From contig OZ251219.1 of assembly GCA_965240465.1 (NCBI GenBank), forward strand, positions 1,184,001 through 1,248,000: 64,000 nt of DNA. The letters are read 5' to 3'. The first letter of the stretch is position 1; each line of letters opens with the position of its first letter. The stretch comes from a bacterium. GTDB taxonomy: Bacteria > SAR324 > JACQKK01. A model generated the notes under the pieces. The model was not told where the DNA came from, did not search any database, and worked only from the letters and a program-made list of their open reading frames with translations. Positions 48,917-64,000 of this stretch are shown here, piece after piece. A program made the position numbers and the translations under genes.

Positions 48917-49411
48917 ATGTCTCAAGAATTACTTAGCAAACTGGAAAGCAAAATCTCCCTAGCGGTGGATGCCATCAGAGAACTGCGTCAAGAGAACCAA
49001 ATCCTACGACAAGAAAGAACCACTCTGGAACAAAAATTACAAAGCCTGCTTGATAAAACCAGTGACCTCCAAAACACTGCTGAGGACATCAAAGAAAGCA
49101 CTCGCGACCAATCGGCTTTTAATTCCTCCAGCACAGAACAAGCTAATTCATTTACTCCAAATGATTTCAGCACTCCCTCCGATGATCAATCCCCTTCCAA
49201 TACTCCCGATAGATCCGCTGACGAACTACGCTCCAGCTTTGATTCAAACCTTCAAACACAGCTGGAAACACAACAAATAGCAGAAGCACCCGATAGTTCC
49301 ATTCTTACCGAAGACCCCGAACTGTCCGACCGACCGTCAGCCGATCTGCCGCCAGCCGATCTGCCGCCAGCCGATCTGCCAACCAGCTGGAGAAGTGGGG
49401 AGCAAGAGTAG
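48917..49411 (+). CDS. zapB: ZapB-like coiled-coil cell division protein with disordered acidic tail
   Basis: MSQELLSKLESKISLAVDAIRELRQEN matches the ZapB N-terminal pattern. Confidence 0.65.
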   Translation: MSQELLSKLESKISLAVDAIRELRQENQILRQERTTLEQKLQSLLDKTSDLQNTAEDIKESTRDQSAFNSSSTEQANSFTPNDFSTPSDDQSPSNTPDRSADELRSSFDSNLQTQLETQQIAEAPDSSILTEDPELSDRPSADLPPADLPPADLPTSWRSGEQE

Positions 49412-49520
49412 GACGCGGGAACAAGCGGGGAAAATCACAGGCACGGGAGGGTTGAGGGCGAAAAAGGGGATGCGAGAGGGTGGGGGGTGGGGGGTTGCGA
49501 GGGTGCGGGGAATAACAGGC

Positions 49521-49679
49521 GGGAATAAGGGAAAATCAGGTGCGGGAATAAGGGAAAATCAGGTGCGGGGATAAGGGAAAATCAGGCACGGGAGGGGCAG
49601 CCACTGATGCCTTGGCAGCCACTGATGCCTTGGCAGCCACTGCTGCCTTGGTAGCCACTGCTACCTCGGTAGCCACTAC
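49521..49679 (+). repeat. Two adjacent tandem arrays: 23-bp x3 and 18-bp x4-5
   Basis: gggaataagggaaaatcaggtgc, then gcagccactgatgccttg. Confidence 0.88.
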
Positions 49680-49714: not shown

Positions 49715-52102
49715 CTAGCCTGCTTTATCGGCTTCTAGTAGTTCTTTGCGTATGGTGGGGAATATATTGGGACGGACGACTAGGGCACTAGCTAGTTGCA
49801 GTGGTCTCCAGTGTGCGAAGAAGCTGAGATTACCAGCGGAGATATTGCTAACGACGGCTGGCAAGTTAAGTTCTCTGGCTCTGCGGATGCCGTGTTCAAG
49901 CATGCTTAGTACGGCTGGATGTTTTTCGTCATAGAAGTCTCGTGCGAGTATATTGTTGGCGTCGGTGCCTTGTGCGAGTTGTGCGATATCGGCTACGCTG
50001 AATATGATTCCGTCCACCAAGTTTTTCAGTTCTTCTAGGATGTATATTTGGCATGGGGTTCGGATGAGTAGGTGTATATTCAGATTATCTTTGCTGGCTC
50101 TGAGTTTATTATTTGATAGAATATCCAGCAGTTTTTGGGTTTCTTTAGGGCTTTGTGTTGCGGGCAGGATGAGTTCTATTTGATTTTGCCCTAGTTCATT
50201 GCGAGCCCGAACGATGGCTTGAAGTTCCAGTTGGAAGGCTTTTTCGTAATCTAGGTCTTGGTAGCGGGAAACTCCTCTTGCTCCTAGGAGGGGGTTTTTT
50301 TCTATTTCGGTGAATTTAGTGCCTCCGATGAGCCGTGACATTTGGTCGCTGGTGGCATCAGAGAGCAGTACTCGGGTAGGTTTGGGGTATACTGAGGCGG
50401 CAATTTGGGCGATCATTTGAGAGAGTTTACGCAGGAAGAAATCTTTTTTATCGGGAAAGCCCACGCTGATTTCGTCCAGCTTATTTTTGTCATCAATGTA
50501 GGGGTAGTTGATAATTGCTAGCGGATGGACGGGCATTTCATGGGAGAGCAGTTCATCTACCCGCAGCAGACCGACCCCTTCATTAGGATAGCGAGCATCG
50601 GAGAAGCTTTGGTCGGGTTTAGCTTGGTGGAACATCAGTGATAGGGAGGGCATTTTCAGTTCGGAGAGTTTAACTGTTTCTTCTTTGAAGGGCAGCAAGC
50701 CATCATAGACTACTCCCTTGCTACCACCTGCACAGGATACGGTTATTTCCTGCCGATCATTTATGCTATTAGTTGCTCCTTCGGCTCCCACTATGCAGGG
50801 AATACCCAACTCGCGAGATATTATGGCAGCATGACTGGTGCGTCCACCCAGTTCGGTGACGATTGCAGAGGCGATGTTCATGATTGGTACCCAGTCGGGA
50901 TCGGTAATTTCTGTTACCAGCACCATGCCCTTCTTAAACATGTTGATGTCTCTGGCAGTCCTTAGTACGCAAGCTTGTCCACTGCCGACATAATCACCTA
51001 CAGCCATACCTGAACAGAGTATTCGGCTAGTTTTTTCCAGTTTTACTTGATGGATCAGGTCGGTATCGCGTCGGGAGATTACGGTTTCTGGTCGGGCTTG
51101 AACGATGAACAATTCCCCTGTTTTACCATCTTTAGCCCATTCTATGTCCATGGGTTTTCGGTAGCCGGCTTCTTGAGAATAGTGGTCTTCAATGATTTTC
51201 GCCCACTTAGCTAGTGTATAGACATCATCATCGCTGAGGCAAAATTGATCGCGTTCTGCTTGGGGGACGTCTTTATTTTCTATTCCCCTAGATCTCAGAT
51301 AGACCATCCGCTTTTGTTTTGCTCCCAGCAATGAGTAGATAATCGCCTTTTTGTTTAGGCTCAGGCTGGGCTTGTGAACGTACCATTCATCGGGATTGAT
51401 GGCTCCTTGTACGACATTTTCTCCTAGTCCATAACCGCCAGTGATGTAAATAGCGTCCTTAAAACCGCTTTCGGTATCAATGGAGAACATTACTCCTGCC
51501 GAGGCTAGGTCGCTACGCACCATTTTTTGTACTGCAATGGAAAGCGATACGGAGAAATGATCGAATTTCTTTTCCTGACGGTAAGCGATGGCTCTATTGG
51601 TGAACAAGGAGGCAAAGCAATTGCGGCATGATGTCAGTAGACATTTGTTTCCCTTTACGTTTAGGTAGCTTTCCTGTTGTCCTGCGAAGGAGGCATCGGG
51701 GAGGTCTTCTGCGGTAGCGGAGGATCTGATGGCAACATCTACATTTTTAGTTTTGTATTCATCACCCAGCTGCTCGTAAGCATCGGTGATGGAGTTGGCA
51801 AGCTCCTTAGACATGGATACCGAGCGAATTAAATCTCGGATATTCTTACCACGTTTAGCTAAATCCTTGATGTTTTTACCATCCAGACCTTTTAGGATGT
51901 CTACAATTTTTTCCTTAATGCCAGTACTTTCAACAAAATGATTGTAAGCATGTGCCGAAATAGCAAATCCACTGGGAATTCGTATGCCCCTGATGGTCAA
52001 ATTAGAGAACATTTCTCCTAAGGAAGCATTTTTGCCTCCCACGATGGGGACATCGCGGATGTCTAGATCTGCGAACCAATAAATGAAGTTGTTTCTTGCC
52101 AT
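49715..52102 (-). CDS. ppsA: PEP synthase homologue with degenerate C-terminal pyruvate/PEP-binding domain
   Basis: Intact VGGKNASLGEM, RSSATAEDLPDASFAGQQ, DIEWA, VQARPETV and GGRTSHAA motifs. C-terminal catalytic motifs are substituted (see findings). Confidence 0.88.
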   Translation of the reverse strand: MARNNFIYWFADLDIRDVPIVGGKNASLGEMFSNLTIRGIRIPSGFAISAHAYNHFVESTGIKEKIVDILKGLDGKNIKDLAKRGKNIRDLIRSVSMSKELANSITDAYEQLGDEYKTKNVDVAIRSSATAEDLPDASFAGQQESYLNVKGNKCLLTSCRNCFASLFTNRAIAYRQEKKFDHFSVSLSIAVQKMVRSDLASAGVMFSIDTESGFKDAIYITGGYGLGENVVQGAINPDEWYVHKPSLSLNKKAIIYSLLGAKQKRMVYLRSRGIENKDVPQAERDQFCLSDDDVYTLAKWAKIIEDHYSQEAGYRKPMDIEWAKDGKTGELFIVQARPETVISRRDTDLIHQVKLEKTSRILCSGMAVGDYVGSGQACVLRTARDINMFKKGMVLVTEITDPDWVPIMNIASAIVTELGGRTSHAAIISRELGIPCIVGAEGATNSINDRQEITVSCAGGSKGVVYDGLLPFKEETVKLSELKMPSLSLMFHQAKPDQSFSDARYPNEGVGLLRVDELLSHEMPVHPLAIINYPYIDDKNKLDEISVGFPDKKDFFLRKLSQMIAQIAASVYPKPTRVLLSDATSDQMSRLIGGTKFTEIEKNPLLGARGVSRYQDLDYEKAFQLELQAIVRARNELGQNQIELILPATQSPKETQKLLDILSNNKLRASKDNLNIHLLIRTPCQIYILEELKNLVDGIIFSVADIAQLAQGTDANNILARDFYDEKHPAVLSMLEHGIRRARELNLPAVVSNISAGNLSFFAHWRPLQLASALVVRPNIFPTIRKELLEADKAG

Positions 52103-52245
52103 GTTGCGTCAATCTCTGAGGGTGATAGGTACAATCTCTAAGGGTAATAGGTACAATCAGGGAACAAATATAATAATAGACAGATCTAATCAGGGATAAA
52201 TGCCATCTCTCTGTGAGAAATTTTCTTAAAGAACTTTAAGAAGCC

Positions 52246-52656
52246 TTAAGAAATAACGCCATCTGTAGTTAATTTGTCAATTATGGACTCCATTTCTTCT
52301 ACATCTTCCACATAGGGTATATCAAAGGTATCAGAAATCTTTTTATGTACGCTCCAGAGTTGTGAATGTACCGAATCGGGCTTGGTGGATAACAAAATCT
52401 CCTCATTTTTGCTTTCTTGAAACCTAGCCAGACCCTCAGCGATGTTGGTAAAGTAAGGGCGAAATTCCTTTTCGCCAAGTCCTGCTAGGGTTTTGGCGGT
52501 CTTAAATGCCATGTTAAAGTAGTTGGTCGCTGATTCCTGATCCTTATTCTGCAAGTCAGTGATGCCCTGCTTGACACACTTATTAAGGCGATTGAATAAT
52601 TTTAAGTTGCGTACCGTTTTAAGTGTATCGCTCATATGACAAAATTCCTTAAACAA
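52246..52656 (-). CDS. Hypothetical helical protein
   Basis: ORF with a probable start at MSDTLK after an AAGGA RBS. Confidence 0.6.
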   Translation of the reverse strand: MFKEFCHMSDTLKTVRNLKLFNRLNKCVKQGITDLQNKDQESATNYFNMAFKTAKTLAGLGEKEFRPYFTNIAEGLARFQESKNEEILLSTKPDSVHSQLWSVHKKISDTFDIPYVEDVEEMESIIDKLTTDGVIS

Positions 52657-52982
52657 CTATTAAAAAAATCCAAATATGGACCAAATATAAAGCACCTTGA
52701 CCCAAAGCCAGCTACCTTGTCATTAAGCCACCAGCTACCTAAGCCACCAGCCACCTCTCGAGAAGCTACCAGCTACCTTTAAGGTCTTCATGTACTATGT
52801 AAGCATGATACTAATTTATTTACAAGCATTCTAGCTGGTAAGTATTAGAATGCCATAAGCAAGTACTCGTGCTAGATTTGGCATGGGAGCATGAATTCTC
52901 TCAGTAGCAGACCGAGAATAACACCTAAAAAGAACATCCGAACAGAACATCCGAACAGAACATCCAAAAATAACATCTAAGC

Positions 52983-54863
52983 ATGGACAAAAAAAGCAAG
53001 CAGCCAGTAAATAAGAGGGTTAAGAAAAATAAGATTGATGGGGGAATTCTGGTAATCAATTTTGGGGGTCAATATGCTCATTTGATTGCCAAGCAAATTC
53101 GTAGTTTGGGGGCAAGTGCAATCATGGATTCTCCTGAAGTGCTACCACATGATTATAGGGCGGAGGGATTAAAGGGTATCATTTTATCGGGTGGTCCGCG
53201 TTCGGTATGGGAGGGGGGATCGCCAGAATTAAATCCCTTTTTGTGGAGGACCAAGTTGCCGATCTTAGGGTTGTGTTATGGACATCAGTTAATTGCGAGG
53301 ATCTATGGTGGCGGAGTGAATACTCAGCAACAGGGAGAATATGGCAAGACCCGCTTGGAATCAGTAGATACTAGCCATCCGCTATTTAAGGGATTGGAAA
53401 ATGCCGTAAAGTCTAGGGGAAGCAGAATGCGGGAGGTCTGGATGAGCCATCAAGATACCGTCCGCGAGGCTCCCCCAGGATTTGAGGTTTTGGCAAGTAC
53501 CAGGGAATGCCCTGTGATAGCGATGGCTGATGATGAGCGAAAACGATATGGTTTGCAGTTTCATCCAGAGGTAAAGGACACTCCCTTTGGCAGGGATATC
53601 TTGGCTAATTTTTTAGAATTAGCAGAGGTAAAGATTGATCGGAGTATGAGGGATGTACAGGCTGATTTAGAAAAGCAATGCAAGATTCAAGTGGGTGAAC
53701 GCAAGGTGCTGATGTTCTTAAGTGGTGGGGTGGATAGCACGGTAGCATTTGCCTTATTGAATAATGCCTTGGGTGTGGATCGGGTACGGGGAATCTTTGT
53801 GGATAATGGCTTCTTGCGTTTGGGTGAGGTGGAGCAGGTACGGAAATCTTATGCTGCTTTGGGATGGAAGAATATCAAGTATGTAGATGCCTCAGCCTAT
53901 TTTTTGCGGGCTTTGAAGGGTTTGACTGATCCTCAGGAGAAGCGGATCGCGGTAGGGGAGGCATTTTTAAGAGTACGGGATATTCAGTTAAAGGAGATGG
54001 GATTAAATCCTGAGGAGTGGATGTTGGGGCAGGGGACTTTGTATCCTGATATTATTGAATCTGGCGGAGAGGAGCATGCGGCGGTAATCAAGTGGCATCA
54101 TAATCGGGTGCCTGCGATAGCTGACATGATTAAGGCTGGTTTGGTGATTGAACCCTTAAAGGATTTATACAAGGATGAGGTGCGTGAATTGGGGACGGAG
54201 CTGGGTTTGCCAAAGGAGTTGGTATGGCGACATCCTTTCCCGGGCCCGGGGTTATCCATCAATGTGATTTGCTCGCATTGGGGGGAACACTCAATCGTAG
54301 ATCCTGTTAAGGGATCGCAGATGGATGAGTTGCCAAGTGGCTGTGGCTATAAGGGGATGGTATTGCCAGTGTTTTCGGTGGGGGTACAGGGGGATGCCCG
54401 CACTTATGTTAATCCAGCGTGCTTGAGCGGTCTACCAGACTGGGAGGCTTTGGAGGATTTATCTACCAATATAACCAATGAGGTGAGTGAGGTTAATCGG
54501 GTGGTGTATTTATTGGGTGGGCAGTTGTCGGATTTGTCCTTGCAGGTGGGATTTTGCGACAAGGGGCGTTTGGATGTGCTTCGCGATGCGGATTGGCTAG
54601 CGACCACTGCTTTTGAAAAAGCTGGCTGGATGGAGAAGATTTTTCAGTTGTTGGTGATCTTGCTTCCATTTGGTAAGTCTGCTAAATCAGGTTCTGTGGT
54701 GTTGCGACCAGTCATTTCGGAGGATGTAATGACGGCTAGATTCGCCCAGCCTCCTTGGGAGTTATTGGAGGAATTAACTCCTCAGTTGTTGGAATTGCCA
54801 GCTATTGATGCGGTATTCTATGATATAACGCATAAGCCACCAGCTACTTTTGGCTGGGAATAG
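52983..54863 (+). CDS. guaA: GMP synthase (glutamine-hydrolysing)
   Basis: LGLCYGHQ, QFHPEV, LSGGVDS, HPFPGPGL and KPPATFGWE motifs. Confidence 0.97.
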   Translation: MDKKSKQPVNKRVKKNKIDGGILVINFGGQYAHLIAKQIRSLGASAIMDSPEVLPHDYRAEGLKGIILSGGPRSVWEGGSPELNPFLWRTKLPILGLCYGHQLIARIYGGGVNTQQQGEYGKTRLESVDTSHPLFKGLENAVKSRGSRMREVWMSHQDTVREAPPGFEVLASTRECPVIAMADDERKRYGLQFHPEVKDTPFGRDILANFLELAEVKIDRSMRDVQADLEKQCKIQVGERKVLMFLSGGVDSTVAFALLNNALGVDRVRGIFVDNGFLRLGEVEQVRKSYAALGWKNIKYVDASAYFLRALKGLTDPQEKRIAVGEAFLRVRDIQLKEMGLNPEEWMLGQGTLYPDIIESGGEEHAAVIKWHHNRVPAIADMIKAGLVIEPLKDLYKDEVRELGTELGLPKELVWRHPFPGPGLSINVICSHWGEHSIVDPVKGSQMDELPSGCGYKGMVLPVFSVGVQGDARTYVNPACLSGLPDWEALEDLSTNITNEVSEVNRVVYLLGGQLSDLSLQVGFCDKGRLDVLRDADWLATTAFEKAGWMEKIFQLLVILLPFGKSAKSGSVVLRPVISEDVMTARFAQPPWELLEELTPQLLELPAIDAVFYDITHKPPATFGWE

Positions 54864-54917
54864 CCTCCCCAGTGATTATACTCAGTGATTATACTCGGTT
54901 AGCATTGTCTAGTTTCA

Positions 54918-56108
54918 ATGAAAAAGAATTCTGATGGAGTAGTAGGGGTAGCAACAGAAAAGAGATTATTTGCTGCGAGGGTTATTGTAGATGCTAGGTT
55001 TTTGGGGAGTGGTTCTGGGTTAGACGCTTATGTGAGGCATTTATTGCCTGAGGTGGCTAGATTATTACCTAAGGTGGAATTCATATTATTAGCTGATCCT
55101 GAGGTTAGATTGCGATTTTCGTGGTTAGATGGCGAGCAGTTTTCTATTTATCCCATGTTGAGTAAGGCTTATTCTTGGGGGGAGCAGTGGAGATTTTTTG
55201 GTGTTCCTAGGGGTGATTTGTTTTGGTCTTGCAATTTCAACGTTCCTATTTTTTTTACTAGTCCTTTTTTTCCTACTAGGACTTTGCTAGTGACAATCCA
55301 TGATTTAATGCTTGATAATTTTTATGCTACCAAGTTGCCGTGGTACAAGCTCAGAATGTTGCGAGTTTATATGCGGACGATCATCAAGAAGGCGGCGGGG
55401 ATTATTTGTATTTCGGGATTTAGTAGAAATGAGATTGTATGGAGATATGGTTTACCTGCTGGTCGGCTAAAAGTAATTAGGTTGGGAGTAGCTGATAGTT
55501 GGTTTAGGCTACGGGCGGACAAGAGAACAGTCCATGCCCGCCCATTTTTTTTGTTTGTGGGTAATTTGAGGCAACACAAAAACTTAGTTAATCTTATTTA
55601 TGCTTTTCGTCAGGTGCGAGAAAAAACGAAACATGATTTGGTTATCATAGGCAGTGCAAAGGGAAAATTCGGCACTGATAGCGAGGTCTTGAAATTGATG
55701 CATTCTGAAACGAGGGTTTATTATAAGGGGTCTTTATCGCAAGAGCAGACGGAGCAGTTTTTTATTCAGTGCGATGCCTTTGTGTTTCCATCTTTGTACG
55801 AGGGGTTTGGTCTACCTCCCTTAGAGGCGATGGCTTGTGGAAAGCCCGTGGTAGCTTCTTATAGCACGGCAATTCCCGAGGTCTGTAATAAGGCGGTGCT
55901 GTACTTTGACCCTCTGGATGTTGATGACATCGCTGAAAAAATGTTGCGGGTAACGAAAGATAAAAATTTACGCCAACAGCTAGTGCATGATGGTCATTTG
56001 CGGGCGAGGCAGTTCACTTGGAAAAATTGTGCTAAGGAAACCAGTGAGCTATTGTTGGATGTCCTGCAAAAAACAAAAAAAGGTAGGCTAAGCCTAGCTA
56101 AACACTAA
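54918..56108 (+). CDS. Glycosyltransferase family 4 (GT-B)
   Basis: VTIHDL, HKNL and PSLYEGFGLPPLEAMACG motifs. Confidence 0.9.
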   Translation: MKKNSDGVVGVATEKRLFAARVIVDARFLGSGSGLDAYVRHLLPEVARLLPKVEFILLADPEVRLRFSWLDGEQFSIYPMLSKAYSWGEQWRFFGVPRGDLFWSCNFNVPIFFTSPFFPTRTLLVTIHDLMLDNFYATKLPWYKLRMLRVYMRTIIKKAAGIICISGFSRNEIVWRYGLPAGRLKVIRLGVADSWFRLRADKRTVHARPFFLFVGNLRQHKNLVNLIYAFRQVREKTKHDLVIIGSAKGKFGTDSEVLKLMHSETRVYYKGSLSQEQTEQFFIQCDAFVFPSLYEGFGLPPLEAMACGKPVVASYSTAIPEVCNKAVLYFDPLDVDDIAEKMLRVTKDKNLRQQLVHDGHLRARQFTWKNCAKETSELLLDVLQKTKKGRLSLAKH

Positions 56109-56123
56109 GAATGAGTCAGGGCA

Positions 56124-57245
56124 GTGAAAATTGCGGTTGTTTGTGATTGGCTGGATAGCTATTCGGGTGCAGAGCGGGTTCTAGAACAGATATTATATTT
56201 GTTCCCTGAGGCTACCTTGTATTCGCTGGTGGATTTTGTTCAAGAGAGAGAATTCTTACAGGGACATAAACCGCGAACTAGTCTTTTACAGCATTTTCCT
56301 TGGGCACGGAGGCATTTTCGGGCTTTTCTGCCTCTGATGCCCAGGATGATAGAAAGCCTCAATCTGCGAGATTATGACGTAATAATATCTAGTTCTCATG
56401 CGGTAGCAAAGGGAGTACGGGTTCGGGCTAATCAATTACATTTGTGTTACTGCCATACTCCGATGCGATATGCGTGGATATTTGAGTCGCAGTACTTAGC
56501 CAGCCTAGGCGGAGCAATGAATCCTGCGGTATGGGCTGCTCGGCTGCTGATGAGGCAGATCAGGCGTTGGGATGCGGGCTGTTGTGATAGGGTATCCAAA
56601 TTCGTAGCCAATTCTCACTATGTAGCGGCTCGGATTAAGACTGTTTATGGTCGCGTGGCGGAAGTGATTTATCCTCCGGTGGATGTGTCTCGCTTTCGGG
56701 TAGGAAAGTGGCCGCGACGAGGACCTTATTGCACGGCGTCGCGCTTGGTACCCTACAAAAGAATTGATCTGCTGAGTGAAGCTTTTTCGCAAATGCCAGC
56801 GCGTCAATTGGTGGTCATCGGAGGAGGAAAAGCTCTGCCTCATTTGCGTGCTAGGGCACCTGCCAATGTGAAATTTCTGGGTCACCTTCCTCCAGAGGAA
56901 ATGCAGCAGCACTTGCGTGAAGCCCGAGCCTTCTTATTTGCAGCCGAAGAAGATTTTGGTATTCTTCCCGTAGAAGCCCAAGCCAGCGGAACTCCAGTGC
57001 TTGCCTACGGCAAAGGAGGAGTGTTAGAGTCGGTCAGGGGCTTGGATAATCGGCATCCAACAGGGATATTCTTTCCTGAGCAAAGTGTTTCGTCAGTAAT
57101 CCAAGCAGTGGAAAAATTTGAACAACTGGAAGCCAACTTTTCGCCTGCTGCCTGTCGTAAAAATGCCGAACGCTTCTCTAATGAAATTTTCAGGCGTGCT
57201 TTCTTCAGAACTTTCTCTAAACTTGTCAATGATGCTCGCGGTTAA
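56124..57245 (+). CDS. Glycosyltransferase family 4 (mannosyltransferase-like)
   Basis: GAERV, CHTPMRYAW, RLVPYKR and EDFGILPVEAQASG motifs. Confidence 0.9.
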   Translation: MKIAVVCDWLDSYSGAERVLEQILYLFPEATLYSLVDFVQEREFLQGHKPRTSLLQHFPWARRHFRAFLPLMPRMIESLNLRDYDVIISSSHAVAKGVRVRANQLHLCYCHTPMRYAWIFESQYLASLGGAMNPAVWAARLLMRQIRRWDAGCCDRVSKFVANSHYVAARIKTVYGRVAEVIYPPVDVSRFRVGKWPRRGPYCTASRLVPYKRIDLLSEAFSQMPARQLVVIGGGKALPHLRARAPANVKFLGHLPPEEMQQHLREARAFLFAAEEDFGILPVEAQASGTPVLAYGKGGVLESVRGLDNRHPTGIFFPEQSVSSVIQAVEKFEQLEANFSPAACRKNAERFSNEIFRRAFFRTFSKLVNDARG

Positions 57246-57319
57246 TCGCTGAAGCTCATTAAAAACAAAACGTAAGGCAGAACGTAAAGCAGAACATATC
57301 ACTTCGGATAATTGAAACA

Positions 57320-58072
57320 ATGAGAGCCTTAAAAAAGCAAACAGTAATGCCTATCGGTACCCAACCTAACAAGGTGATTGCGTCTGTATTTTCATCTATC
57401 AGGGAGGTTATACAACCAAGACTGGAATTGCCAAAGGGGATGCAATACAACCAGCGTCTAAAAATGGAGGGTCTCCATTTTCTTGGCAAAATACCAGATA
57501 AACAAATATCCGTTGCCTTTCTAGACCCTCAATATAGAGGGGTGCTAGACCATTTGAACTATGGCAATGAGGGAGAAAAACGCGGTAAATCACGAAGTTC
57601 ATTGCCACAAATGACCGACAACATACCCAAATTTGTGCAAGAAATAGATCGCGTCTTAATCCCCAGTGGTCACTTGTTTCTCTGGATGGATAAATTCCAT
57701 TTGTGTACTGGGTTTCAGGATTGGTTGGATGGCACCTCTTTAGATGTGGTTGACATGGTCACTTGGGATAAGGGCAGGATCGGCATGGGATACAGAACAC
57801 GCCGTACTGGGGAATATCTCATTGTGCTGCAAAAAGAGCCACGCAAGGCAAAGGGAGTATGGAAGGTCCATAATATCCCCGATGTTTATAAAGAAAAAGT
57901 ACCCAATGGAAATGGAGTACATCCAAAACCAGTAGGGCTACAGGGAGAACTCATAGAAGCCGTTTCAAACTCGGGAGATGTGGTGATAGACCCCGCGGCA
58001 GGGTCTTTTTCCGTGTTAAGGGCTTGCGAAAAACTGAGGCGTAATTTCTTGGGTTGTGATATTAACGGATAA
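57320..58072 (+). CDS. Site-specific amino-DNA methyltransferase (N6A/N4C, beta-type motif order)
   Basis: Catalytic motif IV DPQY precedes HPKP and SAM-binding VIDPAAGS...GCDI. Confidence 0.85.
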   Translation: MRALKKQTVMPIGTQPNKVIASVFSSIREVIQPRLELPKGMQYNQRLKMEGLHFLGKIPDKQISVAFLDPQYRGVLDHLNYGNEGEKRGKSRSSLPQMTDNIPKFVQEIDRVLIPSGHLFLWMDKFHLCTGFQDWLDGTSLDVVDMVTWDKGRIGMGYRTRRTGEYLIVLQKEPRKAKGVWKVHNIPDVYKEKVPNGNGVHPKPVGLQGELIEAVSNSGDVVIDPAAGSFSVLRACEKLRRNFLGCDING

Positions 58073-58534
58073 TGGCTCTTTTAAAAAATGCCCGTGGGAG
58101 AAAAAACGGGGAGAGTAGCAACTATTCTAGGCTGCTAGGCAATCCCGACTTAGGTAAGCTGATAAGTCGCGTACACGCATCAACTATCACAGCTGGATTG
58201 GAATTGGAGAAGATAATAGCTGCTCGTGTGAAATCCATTTCAGATCTAGACGATTTTCTGAGCCAAGAACTGATGCCTGATGGTGTGTTCTTAGTTACAA
58301 AGGAACAACAAGGAAGAAATACATAAAGGATTTAAGAAAAAAATATCTCTGGCTGAGTGCATGACTGGACGCGAGTTTTGCAAACTGTTAGAAATTGACT
58401 ATGATGATATTGTGGCGAATAGAAAGAAAGAAGACGCGAGTAAAAACTTTTTGTACTTCATCCAAGAATTACTAAAAATTGATGAGGTAAGGGAAGTCAT
58501 GAGAAAACATTTTGCAGACTTAAAAAATGAGTAA
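58072..58534 (+). pseudogene. Probable frameshifted or internally deleted type II restriction endonuclease
   Basis: 84-aa ORF overlapping the MTase stop ends at 58326; a +1 frame open 58295-58534 continues with protein-like NKEEIHKGFKKKISLAECMTGREFCKLLEIDYDDIV... Confidence 0.6.
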
Positions 58535-58567
58535 GCTTGTCCATAAGCCCTCAATTATTCATTAACA

Positions 58568-59485
58568 ATGGAATTTTATATGCCTTCTAAGCGTAAAAAA
58601 ACAAAAACTGCTCCCAAAATAGCCAAAAAGATCACTCCGATCCCAGCAGCTAGCCCTCCTGAATCCCAAGGGCCACGCGGATACTGGCTGGGACTGAAAA
58701 TTCTGGCTGGAACGGGTATCTTGCTGACCGCCTACTTGACAATCTTAGCTTGGCTGAATGTTTCACCATTGGCTTGTGTTGAAGGCTCCGCCTGCGAGGC
58801 AGTACAATCCAGCCGCTGGGGAAGCTTGTTGGGATTACCTACATCCCTGTTTGGATTTCTATTTTATGCCGCGATACTCGGAGTGCTATTGCGAGTTCCT
58901 AATCTGGAACGCCGTTGGCGTTTGTTGTGGCGTTTTTCCTTATCAGCCTTGGCGATAAGCCTATATCTGATGACAATATCGCTATTTGTTATCAAGGCTA
59001 CCTGCTTGTATTGTCTGGCTTCTTTGTTATTGGTGATTGCCATCTTGGTACTGGTGATCTTATCTCGCCCGCCTCAAGTGATTATTGGAAGGTGGTTAAA
59101 GTACTCTGGGGCTGGTTTTGTAGCGATATTGATAGCCGTTCATTCGGTATATGCGTTGCCAAACTTTCTGCCAGACTTTCTGCCAGGGAAGGAAGATCCC
59201 TATCTTAAGGGCTTAGCCGAGCATTTAAGTAAGAATGCCGTAATGTACGGTGCTTCTTGGTGTTCTGCCTGTAAGAAACAAAAATCTTACTTCAAGCGTT
59301 CTGCTAAACGCTTGAAATATGTGGAATGTAGCGAGAGGGGAATTAGAGGACCTCAATCACCACGCTGTATTATTAAGGGTATTAACAGCTACCCTACTTG
59401 GTTTATCAATGGAAAAAGGCATGCCCCTGGTATTATCAAGATAAAAGAGCTAGCTGAATTAACAGGGTATGAGCCTCCCCAGTAA
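58568..59485 (+). CDS. Vitamin K epoxide reductase (VKOR) family protein fused to a thioredoxin-like domain
   Basis: CVEGSAC, CLYC, and C-terminal GASWCSAC...SYPTW motifs. Confidence 0.9.
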   Translation: MEFYMPSKRKKTKTAPKIAKKITPIPAASPPESQGPRGYWLGLKILAGTGILLTAYLTILAWLNVSPLACVEGSACEAVQSSRWGSLLGLPTSLFGFLFYAAILGVLLRVPNLERRWRLLWRFSLSALAISLYLMTISLFVIKATCLYCLASLLLVIAILVLVILSRPPQVIIGRWLKYSGAGFVAILIAVHSVYALPNFLPDFLPGKEDPYLKGLAEHLSKNAVMYGASWCSACKKQKSYFKRSAKRLKYVECSERGIRGPQSPRCIIKGINSYPTWFINGKRHAPGIIKIKELAELTGYEPPQ

Positions 59486-61126
59486 TCATTTTCTTTGCTT
59501 CTGGCTGGCTTGGTTAAATTGATTCGGGTGTTGTTGCGACAAATGTTTCTGCGACAAATGTTTTTGCAGCAAGTTTTGTTTTATCAGCTGTCGTTGTAGC
59601 TTGCCATTGCTTGTTCGGGGGAGGGCATTTTCTTTTTTAATCCAGATAAATCTCTTGGGATGCTTCCAAGCCGCCAATCTTGCCTGACAATGAACTTTGA
59701 GAGCTTCATCATCGGGCTTGACTTGGGAGTCGTCTGCCACCAAAACAGCCGTGATGGACTCTCCCCAGCGAGGATCGGGCATGCCTATTATGGCAGCATC
59801 GCGGATGGCAGCATGCTCTGTTAGGGCTTGCTCCAACTCAGCTGGATGAATGTTCACTCCGCCACTGATGAGCATATCGCCCAAGCGTCCCAAATAAAAA
59901 TAAAACCCATCGGGGTCTTGACGGAGTATGTCGTCACTGCGTCCGTACCTGTTGCCATCGCTGTCTACCGAAAAGAATGAAGTGCTGGGGTCGTTGAGAT
60001 AGCCATCCATCATGCAGGGGGTACGCATGGTGAGCTGCCCAGGCTGACCTTGAGAAACTGGATGATTAAGGTCATCGGTTAGCTGTAGCTGGCAATAAGG
60101 GCTGGCTCTTCCTAGGCTGTTAGGGTGACTTTGATGCCCATCTTCGTCTAAGCCTAAGCAAAAGCCAGCTTCTGTTTGTCCGAAGCCTTGGAACCATTTA
60201 ACGCCAGGGAGCAGGCGGCGTAATTGCAGGACGATATCCGTCTGGGTGGGAGCAGCACCATAAACGATGTACTCTAAAGCTAGGGCGGGAACTTTCTCGG
60301 GCAAGCAGCTAAGCAACTTGAAAAGCATGGTAGGTACCGCAGGCAGATGAGTAATCCCTTGCTGGGCTAAGTCCTCCCAACACTGAAAAGCATTAAAACG
60401 AGTACGAAAAAATAAAGCCGCCCCCGATAACACAGCTGCCCAAATCAACCACTGACCAAATTGATGATGCAAAGGCAAGGCACACCAAATGATATGGCTA
60501 TCATTCAACTGGAGATTCTCTACGTGCATAAATGCATGCGATAACTTGGCGCGTTGACTAATCACCACCCCCTTGGGCTGACCGCTGGCACTGCTGGTAC
60601 CGCTGGTAAATAAAACCTGCATGGGAGACTCAGTAGTAACCACAGGGCTCTCTACCCGAATATCATCAGCGCGAAGCCGTTCACCCAGAAGCAGATCGTC
60701 CAGTAGCAGATCGTCCAGTAGCAGCATCTCAATCTTTAGCTTAAGGCTCGCCAGCACCCCCTCAAAGATTGGTTGCTCGGGTTGCTCCAGCCAGAGCAAT
60801 CGGGGCTGCAACTTTGTTAGCATGTATTGCAACTCAGGAGGCTTGCTATTGATGGGAATATGACCCAGAACAACCCCCGCCATGGCAGCTCCAAACTGAA
60901 CCGCCAATGAGCCAAAACCAGCCCTAGCACAAATGGCTACTCGCGTACCTGCCTCCAAACCCTGCACTCTCAGCTGCTCGGCTACCCCCAGAGATGCTCG
61001 TTCTAGCTCTTGCCAAGTCCAGCTCCTCCCGCCTAAGTAGCAGCAAATCTTCGCTGGTGAACGCTCAGTCCGCTCTTTCAATATGCTTTTCAGCGAAATT
61101 GTGCTAGAAAGTGGAAGAGATAACAT
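59486..61126 (-). CDS. Class I adenylate-forming enzyme (acyl-CoA synthetase)
   Basis: FTSGTS...PKG, GFGQTE, SGGVNIHPAELE and LPRTSNGK motifs. Confidence 0.88.
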   Translation of the reverse strand: MLSLPLSSTISLKSILKERTERSPAKICCYLGGRSWTWQELERASLGVAEQLRVQGLEAGTRVAICARAGFGSLAVQFGAAMAGVVLGHIPINSKPPELQYMLTKLQPRLLWLEQPEQPIFEGVLASLKLKIEMLLLDDLLLDDLLLGERLRADDIRVESPVVTTESPMQVLFTSGTSSASGQPKGVVISQRAKLSHAFMHVENLQLNDSHIIWCALPLHHQFGQWLIWAAVLSGAALFFRTRFNAFQCWEDLAQQGITHLPAVPTMLFKLLSCLPEKVPALALEYIVYGAAPTQTDIVLQLRRLLPGVKWFQGFGQTEAGFCLGLDEDGHQSHPNSLGRASPYCQLQLTDDLNHPVSQGQPGQLTMRTPCMMDGYLNDPSTSFFSVDSDGNRYGRSDDILRQDPDGFYFYLGRLGDMLISGGVNIHPAELEQALTEHAAIRDAAIIGMPDPRWGESITAVLVADDSQVKPDDEALKVHCQARLAAWKHPKRFIWIKKENALPRTSNGKLQRQLIKQNLLQKHLSQKHLSQQHPNQFNQASQKQRK

Positions 61127-61263
61127 TATGGCTCTGCAAAAGTCTCAAAATAACAAGTACCCTAGATACCAGCATGCTCTTTCATCAATATCAATGTGGA
61201 GTATTCTTGCTTAGTACATGAATTCCTAGTCGGTAATTCTGTTCGCAATTCTTATAAGGAAAT

Positions 61264-64000
61264 ATGGTATCTCAGCCTCTTAAGAAGCCTATCATCACGG
61301 AAATGTTAGCTGCCGAAGAGCAGATCACTCCCTTATTCAGTGAGGGAGGAAGAGGATGGGGATTAATAGCCCGCCAGCAAGTCACACTCGCTTCCTGTGG
61401 AGCCAATATCCTAGACGGCTTTGTTTTGTCTGCAGATCTGCTTAGCCAAATAACCGAAGAAAAATCAATCCCGCTGGATGCCAAAGAAAAGATTGCCGAA
61501 AGCATAAAGGCACTTGAAAAAAGCAGTGGCAAATCTTTTGGAGCTACCAATTCTCCTGAAAAAAGCAGTGGCAAATCTTTTGGAGCTACCAATTCTCCCC
61601 CACTATTATTAAGTCTGACATTGGAATATCCAAGAGAGCCTATGGATAGGGGACAAGAGGAAGGTTCTCCACTAATCTCTTATAATGAACGAAGACGACG
61701 TTTTGTTAACTTAGGTTTGGTTAACAGCACAATGGAGGCTTGGCTGAAAAGCGGTGCAGAACCGCGTCAGGTTTGGGATGCCTGCCGTCGGCAAGTGGAA
61801 CGCTGGGCAATCATTATGGCAGGGGAAAAAGAAGAGAAGTGGGAAGATGAGATGGCACGCCTCAGTCGGAAATATCTTGATTATGGCACGAGACACTATG
61901 CAGGGCTTTCAGCTACCGAGACGGAAAACTTCACTAAAGAAATTCAAGGGTTGTGTGAAGATTGTGAGATTGCTCAGTTGAAGGATGATCCGTGGGAGCA
62001 GCTATGGCAGGTGATTACCGAATTTTACCGTAAAGCACCAGAGAAGGAGCATTTGAAAAAAAAGGACTATCCAAGCATGTTGGTGCGGGAAGCACCCCAA
62101 GGTTTTAGCCCTACAGGAGGGGCAGGGGTTTTGCAATCGCGTATTCCCATGACAGGTGAGGTGGGTTGGCATGGTTCTTTTGCACCATTTGCACAATTGG
62201 ATGATTTATTCTATGGCAATCGGTTGCCTGAAAAAGCAGCCTATTTTTGTGAAAAATTTCCGAAAATATTGCAAGAACTATCGGCTTTGTCAAAAAAGCT
62301 GGAAGATAAGCAAAAAGAAGTAAAAAAAATATTTTTTGTGTTGGAATCAGAGCAAGGACGGTATCCTGAGTTGCTAGTCTTAAGTACACGGGAAGCAAGT
62401 TTTAGTCCTGAGGTTTCCTTTCATGTGGCTTTAGATATGCAAGCTAAGGGCATATTGGATGAAAAGGAAACCATGGCCCTAATCCAGCCTGAGTTTATTC
62501 GTAGCCACTTGCATTCCAAATTGGATGTCTCTAAGACCGCCTCCCTGTTTTGCCAAGGATTGCCCGCCTCGGCAGGATGCGCGGTGGGTCAGCTGGTACT
62601 ATTTGCAGAAAATGCCGAAAAATTGGTGGAGCAAGGCAAACAGGTGATCTTGGTGCGTCATGAAACCACCCCAGAAGATATTAATGGGCTGAAATCTGCT
62701 GATGGAGTACTGACTTCGGGTGGAGGTTATACTTCGCATGCGGCATTGGTGGCTCGGGGAATGGGTAAGCCCGCAATAGTAGGGGTGAATACCCTAGTGG
62801 TAGATTATCTGCTGAACGAGATCTGCTACCAAGGGATTACATTGCAACAAGGAGACTGGATTAGCATGGACGGAGCAACAGGTAAGGTATATGCGGGCAA
62901 ACTAGACACCATACCCCCTGTTATATCCCACGAGGTGCATAAAGTACTCAGGCTGGCTGATAAAACCAGAACCCTGAAAGTGCGTGCCAATGCAGATAAC
63001 GTAGCCGATGCCCGTTGTGCCTTAGAAAATGGGGCAGAAGGAATAGGACTATGTCGCACCGAACATATGTTTTTTGACATGGAAAGGATCACTACCTTTC
63101 GCAAAATGATCCTCTCGGACACCGAAGAAGAATGTGATAAAGCCCTAGCTGAACTGCTGCCTCTACAAAGAGAAGATTTCTTGGAAATATTTCGGGTGAT
63201 GAAGGAACTCCCAGTAACTATTAGGCTGCTAGACCCGCCTCTGCACGAATTCCTGCCCAGAGGAGATAGATCCCGATCCCGAATGTCCAAAGCTATGGGC
63301 TTATCGGTACAGGATATCCAAAGGAGAATAGATGTCATGGCAGAGCAAAACCCGATGATGGGTAGACGCGGTTGCCGATTGGCGTTCACTAATCCAGGTA
63401 TTTATAAAATGCAAACCCGTGCCATCGTGGAAGCCGTTTCCTTGGCATCTCAGGAGGGCATTAAGGTCAAGGCAGAGATCATGATCCCCCTCGTCAGTGA
63501 TTGTCGTGAACTATGGATGCTGCGTTCGCAGATAGATGAAATTATCTCAGAAGAAAAAAACAAGGAACTAAGCAAGGAACTAAACATAGAAATTGGTGCC
63601 ATGATAGAAACTCCGCGGGCTGCCTTGTGTGCTGGTGAACTGGCAGAACATGCCGATTTTCTCTCCTTTGGAACCAATGACCTCACCCAAATGACCTATG
63701 GGATTTCTCGTGATGATACGGAAAGTTTCCTCCCAACATACTTTCAAAAAGGAATATTAGATAAAAACCCCTTCGTGAATATTGATGTCCGTGGGGTAGG
63801 CGAATTGCTGGACATAGCAGTTCAAAGGGCTCGGTCGGTAAAAGAAAACATAAAACTAGGCATTTGTGGAGAACACGGTGGAGATGCCTATTCGGTGCGG
63901 GAATTTCACAAACTAGGCTTGGATTATGTCAGTTGTTCTCCCTTTCGCTTATTGGAGGCTCGCTTGGCAGCGGGTAATTCGGTAGCCAGAGGAACTAAAA
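61264..64000 (+). CDS. ppdK: Pyruvate phosphate dikinase homologue with degenerate N-terminal nucleotide-binding domain; runs off the window, not in the ORF track
   Basis: AAGGA RBS then ATG 61264. Manually translated open frame contains GLPAS, GGYTSHAALVARG, GIGLCRTEHMFF, RLLDPPLHEFLP, MIETPRA, SFGTNDLTQ and GICGEHGG. Confidence 0.9.
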   Translation, partial: MVSQPLKKPIITEMLAAEEQITPLFSEGGRGWGLIARQQVTLASCGANILDGFVLSADLLSQITEEKSIPLDAKEKIAESIKALEKSSGKSFGATNSPEKSSGKSFGATNSPPLLLSLTLEYPREPMDRGQEEGSPLISYNERRRRFVNLGLVNSTMEAWLKSGAEPRQVWDACRRQVERWAIIMAGEKEEKWEDEMARLSRKYLDYGTRHYAGLSATETENFTKEIQGLCEDCEIAQLKDDPWEQLWQVITEFYRKAPEKEHLKKKDYPSMLVREAPQGFSPTGGAGVLQSRIPMTGEVGWHGSFAPFAQLDDLFYGNRLPEKAAYFCEKFPKILQELSALSKKLEDKQKEVKKIFFVLESEQGRYPELLVLSTREASFSPEVSFHVALDMQAKGILDEKETMALIQPEFIRSHLHSKLDVSKTASLFCQGLPASAGCAVGQLVLFAENAEKLVEQGKQVILVRHETTPEDINGLKSADGVLTSGGGYTSHAALVARGMGKPAIVGVNTLVVDYLLNEICYQGITLQQGDWISMDGATGKVYAGKLDTIPPVISHEVHKVLRLADKTRTLKVRANADNVADARCALENGAEGIGLCRTEHMFFDMERITTFRKMILSDTEEECDKALAELLPLQREDFLEIFRVMKELPVTIRLLDPPLHEFLPRGDRSRSRMSKAMGLSVQDIQRRIDVMAEQNPMMGRRGCRLAFTNPGIYKMQTRAIVEAVSLASQEGIKVKAEIMIPLVSDCRELWMLRSQIDEIISEEKNKELSKELNIEIGAMIETPRAALCAGELAEHADFLSFGTNDLTQMTYGISRDDTESFLPTYFQKGILDKNPFVNIDVRGVGELLDIAVQRARSVKENIKLGICGEHGGDAYSVREFHKLGLDYVSCSPFRLLEARLAAGNSVARGTK

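Follow-up and report, generated by a model that had tools for sequence, protein, structure and literature searches.

A PEP synthase homolog and a PPDK homolog that each appear to keep one of two dikinase catalytic sites in a SAR324-related family

Two dikinase homologs and their predicted sites

The window analyzed here is a 64,000-nucleotide stretch of a bacterial genome (GTDB lineage Bacteria; SAR324; JACQKK01; GenBank assembly GCA_965240465.1, contig OZ251219.1, positions 1,184,001 to 1,248,000 of the forward strand). It encodes two homologs of phosphoenolpyruvate (PEP)-utilizing dikinases, one related to the PEP synthase PpsA (P0001) and the other to PPDK (P0002), and a small gene, X, upstream of the first. 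P0001 and P0002 and their orthologs are referred to below as variant PpsA and variant PPDK. The genome (G000) is one contig of 1.599 Mb, and the relatives used for comparison are 18 other genomes of the same family. Both open reading frames (ORFs) are full length, uninterrupted and located where the initial annotation of the window had placed them. The features are listed below with positions in the window.

49715-52102, minus strand: variant PpsA (P0001), 795 amino acids (aa), a PEP-synthase homolog with intact ATP-grasp and phospho-His domains and a remodeled barrel
51053-52102, minus strand: ATP-grasp domain of variant PpsA, aa 1-350
50693-51052, minus strand: swivelling His domain of variant PpsA, aa 351-470, with H424 (codon 50831-50833)
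49718-50665, minus strand: remodeled barrel of variant PpsA, aa 480-795
50060-50062, minus strand: codon of barrel residue R681, in place of the Mg-binding Glu
52246-52635, minus strand: gene X, 129 aa, 143 nt upstream of variant PpsA on the same strand, with invariant H90 and H97
61264-64000, plus strand: variant PPDK (P0002), 912 aa in the window (61264-63999) and 925 aa in total, the last 13 codons lying beyond the window end
61264-62523, plus strand: degenerate ATP-grasp domain (N-domain) of variant PPDK, aa 1-420
61515-61598, plus strand: perfect in-frame tandem duplication (42 bp x2, 14 aa) inside this degenerate N-domain
62524-62913, plus strand: swivelling His domain of variant PPDK, aa 421-550, with T490 and H492 (codon 62737-62739)
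62914-64000, plus strand: PEP/pyruvate barrel of variant PPDK, aa 551 to the end, with R598, R654, Glu, N805, D806 and C868 present

The PpsA homolog had been described as keeping its ATP-grasp motifs and phospho-His and losing key barrel residues, a description borne out by Pfam scores, by Neisseria PpsA (2OLS) and by a set of canonical PpsA sequences. P0001 scores 398 bits for PPDK_N and 95 bits for the mobile His domain, and its barrel is weak at 79 bits compared with 251 bits for P0002. The protein lies above the NCBIfam PEP-synthase cut-offs (870.3 versus 739.75 and 883.9 versus 598; TIGR01418 / NF005057), with profile matches that end at 737/784 and 743/798, about 50 positions short of the profile end. 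The ATP-grasp domain and the GGRTSHAAI phospho-His motif are nearly unchanged from 2OLS. The barrel motifs MCELPS, GSNDMTQL, GICGQ and VRMSD of 2OLS read LLIRTP, SVADIAQL, VVSNI and VLLSD in P0001. Phospho-His H424, T422 and two arginines (R514 and R609) are retained relative to 2OLS and the canonical set, and L579, R681, A704 and S752 occupy the places of PPDK R617, E745, N768 and C831. The functional roles of the barrel and ATP-grasp residues in both proteins are presumed to be those given in the PPDK literature.

Residue counts for variant PpsA used 36 canonical PpsA (of 77 usable among the matches listed) and 16 full-length family orthologs; 3 of the 19 family genomes were excluded, two with fragments and one missed by the motif filter. 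A canonical-conserved position is one conserved at 95% or more across the canonical set. The barrel Glu, Asn, Asp and Cys are kept in 36/36 canonical PpsA. In the family orthologs, the Glu position (counterpart of PPDK E745) is Arg in 16/16, the Asn position is Ala, Gly or Ser in 16/16, the Cys is lost in 15/16 and the counterpart of R617 is a conserved Leu. The two other arginines and the His are retained in 16/16, and T422 and H424 are invariant. The 124 canonical-conserved barrel positions divide into 38 kept, 9 switched to another conserved residue, the Glu to Arg change among them, and 77 variable. When genome contigs were scanned with P0001, the matches listed were canonical PpsA only, with no relatives of the altered form.

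The converse description of the PPDK homolog, with phospho-His and full barrel kept and ATP-grasp residues lost, held up against Clostridium symbiosum PPDK and eight canonical PPDKs of a sister family. Pfam detects the His domain and the strong barrel of P0002 and gives no match to PPDK_N (PF01326). The TIGR01828 score is below the cut-off (769.9 versus 843.45), and the match begins at residue 148. In C. symbiosum numbering, where His455 of the 874-residue chain matches the literature numbering, R561, R617, E745, N768, D769, C831 and T453/H455 are all present. T453, H455, R561, R617, N768, D769 and C831 are retained in 15/15 family orthologs. The ATP-grasp domain has K, F and S in place of D321, E323 and Q335, a Thr in place of R92, and no GGKG lysine (K22). 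R337 is the sole key residue left, with 5/6 replaced; all six are present in 8/8 of the canonical sister-family PPDKs.

This loss stands for the present genome and is less complete in most other genera. Of 13 orthologs from other genera, 12 keep K22, 12 keep R92, 12 have an acidic residue at D321 and 8 have R337; E323 and Q335 are each lost in 10/13, and a DLTAG motif replaces GEDVVAG. K22, R92, D321, E323 and Q335 are all replaced in both species of this genus. Judged by these residues, the decay of the N-domain is graded, being less advanced in most other genera than here. An AlphaFold model of variant PPDK built with 15 family sequences has a mean predicted local distance difference test score (pLDDT) of 77. 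The N-domain core is folded in the model, with pLDDT of about 75-90 across residues 147-420. Residues 1-28, 65-93 and 125-144 have pLDDT <50 and are predicted to be disordered, the last of these segments spanning the former phosphate-loop region.

The retained sites of the two proteins are complementary. Variant PpsA keeps 101/110 canonical-conserved positions in the N-domain, 34/36 in the His domain and 38/124 in the barrel. Positions invariant in the eight sister-family PPDKs are retained by P0002 at 56/156, 47/62 and 129/164 in the same three domains. The Arg fixed in 16/16 variant PpsA and the residues kept in 15/15 variant PPDK show that the pattern is not due to chance. The intact sites indicate that variant PpsA almost certainly loads its His from ATP and that variant PPDK almost certainly exchanges phosphate between PEP/pyruvate and His492. 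The remodeled PpsA barrel would be unable to bind Mg-PEP or pyruvate, and variant PPDK would be unable to use ATP, AMP or PPi.

Distribution, selection and gene neighborhoods

Variant PpsA is found in 19/19 family genomes, the 18 others at 57-72% identity and two of these truncated by contig ends. Variant PPDK is found in 18/19, with 17/18 relatives at 40-56% identity; among the 18 relatives searched, no ortholog was found in G005 (84% complete). The sister family has a canonical PPDK in 8/22 genomes, and no PpsA ortholog was found in these 22 genomes. P0002 is 50-52% identical to the canonical sister-family PPDK in the His domain and barrel, and variant PPDK descends from it. When the 19 family genomes were searched for PPDK_N, the variant PpsA domain was detected at ~400 bits in 18 and was missing from G006, where variant PpsA is cut. 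The variant PPDK N-domains appeared as weak pieces only, and one extra 478-aa protein was detected in G014. Neither this genome nor the 18 relatives searched yielded a canonical PpsA or PPDK. Only three genes in this genome have PEP-utilizer domains, and PPDK_N occurs in P0001 alone. In the two checks suggested with the initial annotation, the variants co-occur in relatives and an intact ppsA or ppdK was not found in the genomes searched; none of the outcomes that it named as refuting its proposal was seen.

Mean pairwise identities (%) by domain were:

Variant PpsA (family): N-domain 73, His domain 74, barrel 54.5
Canonical PpsA: N-domain 62, His domain 62, barrel 68
Variant PPDK (family): N-domain 38-42, His domain 65-68, barrel 67-70
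Canonical PPDK (sister family): N-domain 65, His domain 68, barrel 66

Between the two species of this genus, variant PPDK is 38% identical in the N-domain and 70% identical in the barrel. The ratio of nonsynonymous to synonymous substitution rates (dN/dS), a third suggested check, was calculated from one same-genus pair with unsaturated synonymous sites. The values are 0.15, 0.20 and 0.21 for the N-domain, His domain and barrel of variant PpsA, and 0.45, 0.25 and 0.17 for the corresponding domains of variant PPDK; canonical sister-family PPDKs have values of 0.02-0.08. The values for the two altered domains, 0.21 (PpsA barrel) and 0.45 (PPDK N-domain), indicate that these are relaxed and not neutral, the PPDK N-domain being the loosest. 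Both altered domains are under purifying selection. Apart from fragments at contig ends, every genome examined has full-length frames without interruption, despite saturated synonymous divergence. By these sequence criteria, each gene encodes an intact enzyme under selection that has kept one of the two dikinase catalytic sites.

X was overlooked in the initial annotation, and any test of mechanism must include it. The gene is present in 18/19 family genomes, the genome without it being G006, where the variant PpsA start is missing, and in 0/69 other genomes of the phylum. In 17/18 genomes variant PpsA follows X at a distance of no more than a few hundred bases; the exception is a contig break. 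Metagenomes yielded 34 X loci, of which 26 have >200 nt of downstream sequence; variant PpsA is there in 24, and the other two have 203 and 305 nt. Mean column identity of X over 11 genomes is 81%, above that of every variant PpsA domain. An X profile searched against 1.84 billion representatives matched 7 proteins, none longer than 132 aa; one of them is a distant homolog that retains both invariant histidines. A natural fusion of X to variant PpsA was sought and none occurs among these 7 matches. A 1036-aa open frame around X in G013 was also considered as a fusion and rejected; the stop-to-stop frame of variant PpsA there is only 818 aa.

A Pfam scan of X at E values up to 10 returned two chance matches only and no Hpt family, and a profile search of the PDB gave nothing below E 0.3. 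The best ESM Atlas score was 0.85, to phage hypothetical proteins and below the useful range, and Foldseek with the X model gave no match at E up to 0.001. The model is an all-helical bundle with a pLDDT of 91.5. VIA-align superimposes it on CheA P1 with Z 9.4-9.6 and on HptB with Z 8.6, and unrelated helical bundles score alike. X is thus a predicted four-helix protein without a known family and is restricted to this bacterial family. Short near-perfect tandem repeats occupy most intergenic gaps of the region (49334-49677, 52110-52158, 52724-52980, 54870-54896 and others), and one of them sits in the 143-nt spacer between X and variant PpsA.

A third PPDK-like gene lies outside the window on the minus strand (G000:C1:394393-396993; locus L167 6394-8994) and encodes 867 aa. 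It is present in all 19 family genomes at 28-31% identity. The His is kept, and the barrel Arg, the Asn-Asp pair, the Cys and the ATP-grasp residues are lost. The gene belongs to a conserved same-strand cluster in 9/9 family loci examined, together with genes for two paralogous ~620-aa proteins, one ~340-aa protein and type II secretion system (T2SS) L/M-like proteins. In the sister family (G026:C8, G035:C224, G022:C125 and G023:C1), adjacent ORFs encode ~370-425-aa proteins like the PpsA N-domain (31-40% identity) and ~620-670-aa proteins with a His domain; from their sequences, these pairs resemble the split dikinases typified by phenylphosphate synthase.

Two other genes of the window were recorded. 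A GMP synthase gene at 52983-54863 (plus strand) encodes 626 aa (626-630 aa in G001 and G008). Extra residues separate its C-terminal dimerization domain (544-625) from the ATP-pyrophosphatase part, where the profile match ends at residue 509. A 250-aa N6/N4 DNA methylase ORF, directly followed by an 84-aa ORF of no known family, occupies 57320-58326 (plus strand), and a methylase fragment is found near variant PpsA in G008 as well.

A possible relay in trans and competing explanations

The metabolic setting bears on what the two proteins may do. This genome has enolase, malic enzyme and a 2-oxoacid dehydrogenase E1. No match was found in the one-contig genome for pyruvate kinase, either PEP carboxykinase (PEPCK), PEP carboxylase, 2-keto-3-deoxy-6-phosphogluconate (KDPG) aldolase or pyruvate:ferredoxin oxidoreductase (PFOR), nor for HPr (PF00381) or PSRP. 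The sister species has a 496-aa pyruvate kinase (within locus L176, G001:C1:450500-458000). The genes that flank it there are adjacent in this genome (G000:C1:87480-88798), and no remnant was found at the syntenic site. This comparison indicates that pyruvate kinase is cleanly deleted here. Nothing else was found joining PEP and pyruvate in this genome.

With nothing else found to join PEP and pyruvate, and with an N-domain that lacks its own site, variant PPDK would need an outside phosphate donor or acceptor. Variant PpsA, perhaps via X, is the only candidate in view, and on this argument a relay in trans, in which X may take part, is the likeliest of the mechanisms considered, although it is put forward tentatively. 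The relay would start with phosphorylation of His424 of variant PpsA by ATP at the intact ATP-grasp site. The rebuilt barrel would most likely be the docking site for X, whose gene is proposed to be co-transcribed, and X would act as carrier or adaptor in the transfer of phosphate from the variant PpsA His to His492 of variant PPDK. Transfer from this His to pyruvate would complete a net reaction that is that of PEP synthase. Run in reverse, the relay could substitute for the deleted pyruvate kinase. We infer the half-reactions of both proteins, the binding of X and every protein-to-protein transfer in this scheme. A report on Thermococcus kodakarensis describes a PEP synthase that operates in the glycolytic direction (PMC8100219). 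It is doubtful that a three-protein relay has replaced PEP synthase throughout the family, with X carrying phosphate to the variant PPDK His in the manner of HPr or a histidine phosphotransfer (HPt) protein, the dead domains acting as docking sites and the reverse reaction perhaps replacing pyruvate kinase in this genome.

The initial annotation had proposed that each protein keeps one half-reaction and that the two complement in trans. The residues, the co-occurrence, the selection and the absence of an intact paralog from the genomes searched agree with this proposal. The absence of linkage outside the genus, the separate neighbors and the restriction to a single clade do not, and complementation in trans, as a heteromer or by His-to-His transfer, is unproven.

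A number of observations weigh against the relay. Pyruvate kinase is present in 18/18 relatives and GTP-PEPCK in 9/18, the best-assembled genomes (G001, G004, G008 and G009) not being among the nine, so that the metabolic argument applies in full only to this genome. Variant PpsA and variant PPDK lie ~9 kb apart on opposite strands, with unrelated genes between them, and do so only in this genus; they are on different contigs in other genera, and variant PPDK is absent from the flanks of the 34 metagenome X loci. All co-occurrence of the two lies in one clade and thus counts as a single evolutionary event. Each gene has a separate conserved neighbor, X for variant PpsA and a membrane protein, Y, for variant PPDK. 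The Y gene is directly 3' of variant PPDK on the same strand in 8/8 loci of other genera (L159-L166) and is absent from this position in this genus. Y is 320-483 aa long and poorly conserved; it has a WEHVAG motif and predicted membrane helices and matches no Pfam family. A weak homolog is found elsewhere in this genome (C1:640957-641775, 26% identity). An aminotransferase gene lies 5' of variant PPDK in 3 of the same 8 loci.

The proteins themselves supply further points against a relay. A variant PPDK N-domain with only 38-42% pairwise identity is a poor fit to the docking of an X that is 81% conserved. With K22 and R92 each kept in 12/13 orthologs of other genera, variant PPDK there may bind a phosphate compound of its own. 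The new fixed residues in the variant PpsA barrel point to a new job and not to loss only. Reciprocal loss needs prior cross-talk between two enzymes with tethered domains, an awkward route for evolution. The two His domains were checked for convergence at the 12 positions that distinguish canonical PpsA and PPDK. Variant PPDK stays PPDK-like or has a third residue at these positions and never has the PpsA-type residue, and E405V is the sole change in variant PpsA. Convergence was not seen, giving no support for cross-docking.

Two independent new functions are nearly as likely as the relay, and the suggestion in the initial annotation of separate ATP-driven and PEP-driven phosphodonors keeps about the same standing. 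Variant PpsA and X would then form an ATP-driven phosphohistidine module in which X, or a ligand held by X, is phosphorylated at the rebuilt barrel in a role that has no connection with PEP. Variant PPDK would be an Enzyme I-like phosphodonor that autophosphorylates from PEP, with an acceptor perhaps tied, in other genera, to the downstream membrane protein. The conserved neighbors X and Y and the absence of linkage outside this genus favor such a division of labor, as do the 9 barrel positions at new conserved residues, including Glu to Arg, and the family-specific DLTAG motif found with K22 and R92 in other genera. The third, dead PPDK-like gene in its T2SS L/M-like operon points to repeated co-option of the fold in the family, and rifampin phosphotransferase is described as an example of dikinase chemistry on other acceptors (PMC4844700). 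However, no acceptor can be named, no HPr was found and the genome would be left without a link between PEP and pyruvate. The loss of K22 and R92 in this genus and the fresh 14-aa duplication, set against a barrel that is still 70% identical, argue that a trans partner is needed here.

Two further explanations dispense with a relay. It is unlikely that variant PPDK works alone, converting PEP to pyruvate and discharging its phospho-His either to water or, at the altered N-domain, to phosphate or some other small donor or acceptor. Such an enzyme would substitute for the lost pyruvate kinase here, and variant PpsA and X would be unrelated to it. The intact barrel and His domain, the predicted folded N-domain core and the limitation of the pyruvate kinase deletion to this genome are consistent with this activity, as is the retention in most other-genera orthologs of the phosphate-binding K22 and R92 with the Mg ligands E323 and Q335 mostly lost. 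In this genome and the sister species, by contrast, all of K22, R92, D321, E323 and Q335 are replaced and the phosphate-loop region is predicted to be disordered; moreover, plain hydrolysis squanders the energy of PEP. We know of no enzyme that converts PEP to pyruvate with such a discharge of phospho-His, which also counts against it. Very improbable is the view that the altered domains are decaying relics and that at least one of the two proteins lacks an enzymatic function. The variant PPDK N-domain evolves fast (38% identity versus 70% for the barrel; dN/dS of 0.45 versus 0.02-0.08 in canonical enzymes) and tolerates the perfect 42-bp duplication, and the genome is reduced (1.6 Mb). Decay is at odds with the uninterrupted frames at saturated synonymous divergence, with dN/dS values well under 1 in every domain, with the invariance of the catalytic His, the intact halves and the new Arg, and with the 81% conservation of X.

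Relation to known systems and consequences

Neither variant PpsA nor variant PPDK fits the full definition of its own family, as judged by residues and profiles. P0001 shares with PEP synthase (PpsA, EC 2.7.9.2; 2OLS) the three-domain order, canonical ATP-grasp and His domains and scores above the profile cut-offs. It lacks the full barrel catalytic set of that enzyme (two Arg, the Mg-binding Glu and Asp, Asn and the proton-donor Cys), having no counterparts of R617, E745, N768 and C831 and having lost 86/124 conserved positions. The variant PpsA gene is also paired with X, and no regulatory protein PSRP was found in the genome. P0002 shares with PPDK (EC 2.7.9.1; C. symbiosum, 1KBL/2R82) its architecture and the conserved His domain and PEP/pyruvate barrel. 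It differs in the absence of PPDK_N, the score under the TIGR01828 cut-off, the replacement of 5/6 ATP-grasp key residues and N-domain conservation of 38-42%, compared with 65% in canonical relatives.

Enzyme I, too, has a PEP barrel and a swivelling domain with a phospho-His, from which phosphate goes to the His of a small carrier, HPr; X is proposed to follow the same logic. Complementation between Enzyme I subunits was reportedly described by Brokx et al. in 2000. The TIGR01417 scores of P0002 (154.3) and P0001 (78.1) are below the cut-off of 341.7, neither protein has the HPr-binding helical subdomain, no HPr gene was found in the genome and the model of X shows a helical bundle in place of the HPr fold. 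The donor in the proposed relay would be ATP and not PEP. X may resemble the HPt domains CheA P1 and HptB, its model being a helical bundle of similar size in which an invariant His is placed on a helix. Its scores are not above those of unrelated helical bundles, it has no Hpt Pfam match and no two-component partner is implied.

Phenylphosphate synthase and phenylphosphoamidate synthase are described as acting with the ATP-grasp and phospho-His parts on separate subunits, the acceptor in that description of phenylphosphate synthase not being pyruvate (PMC7500099). The protein is physically split there, whereas P0001 and P0002 are full-length three-domain chains in each of which a single domain is silenced, and neither variant PpsA nor variant PPDK was seen in an aromatic-degradation context. 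The statement in the initial annotation that no such system was described agrees with full-text literature searches, in which no description of such a pair was found. The arrangement is real, conserved and undescribed in the literature searched.

Textbooks treat PpsA and PPDK as self-contained enzymes, and both are counted by homology in metabolic reconstructions. P0001 passes curated cut-offs although its predicted PEP site is gone, and automatic annotation would therefore call it PEP synthase. This SAR324-related family would then be credited with a gluconeogenic step that it may lack or carry out only with several proteins. Should the relay exist, two different PEP-utilizing enzymes would for the first time be seen to share one reaction by inter-protein phosphate transfer, and X would found a new family of small carriers or adaptors. 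Should it not exist, variant PpsA with X and variant PPDK would be two new phosphotransferases. Either way, the pair provides a clean, testable example of multidomain enzymes that have been dismantled and re-used.

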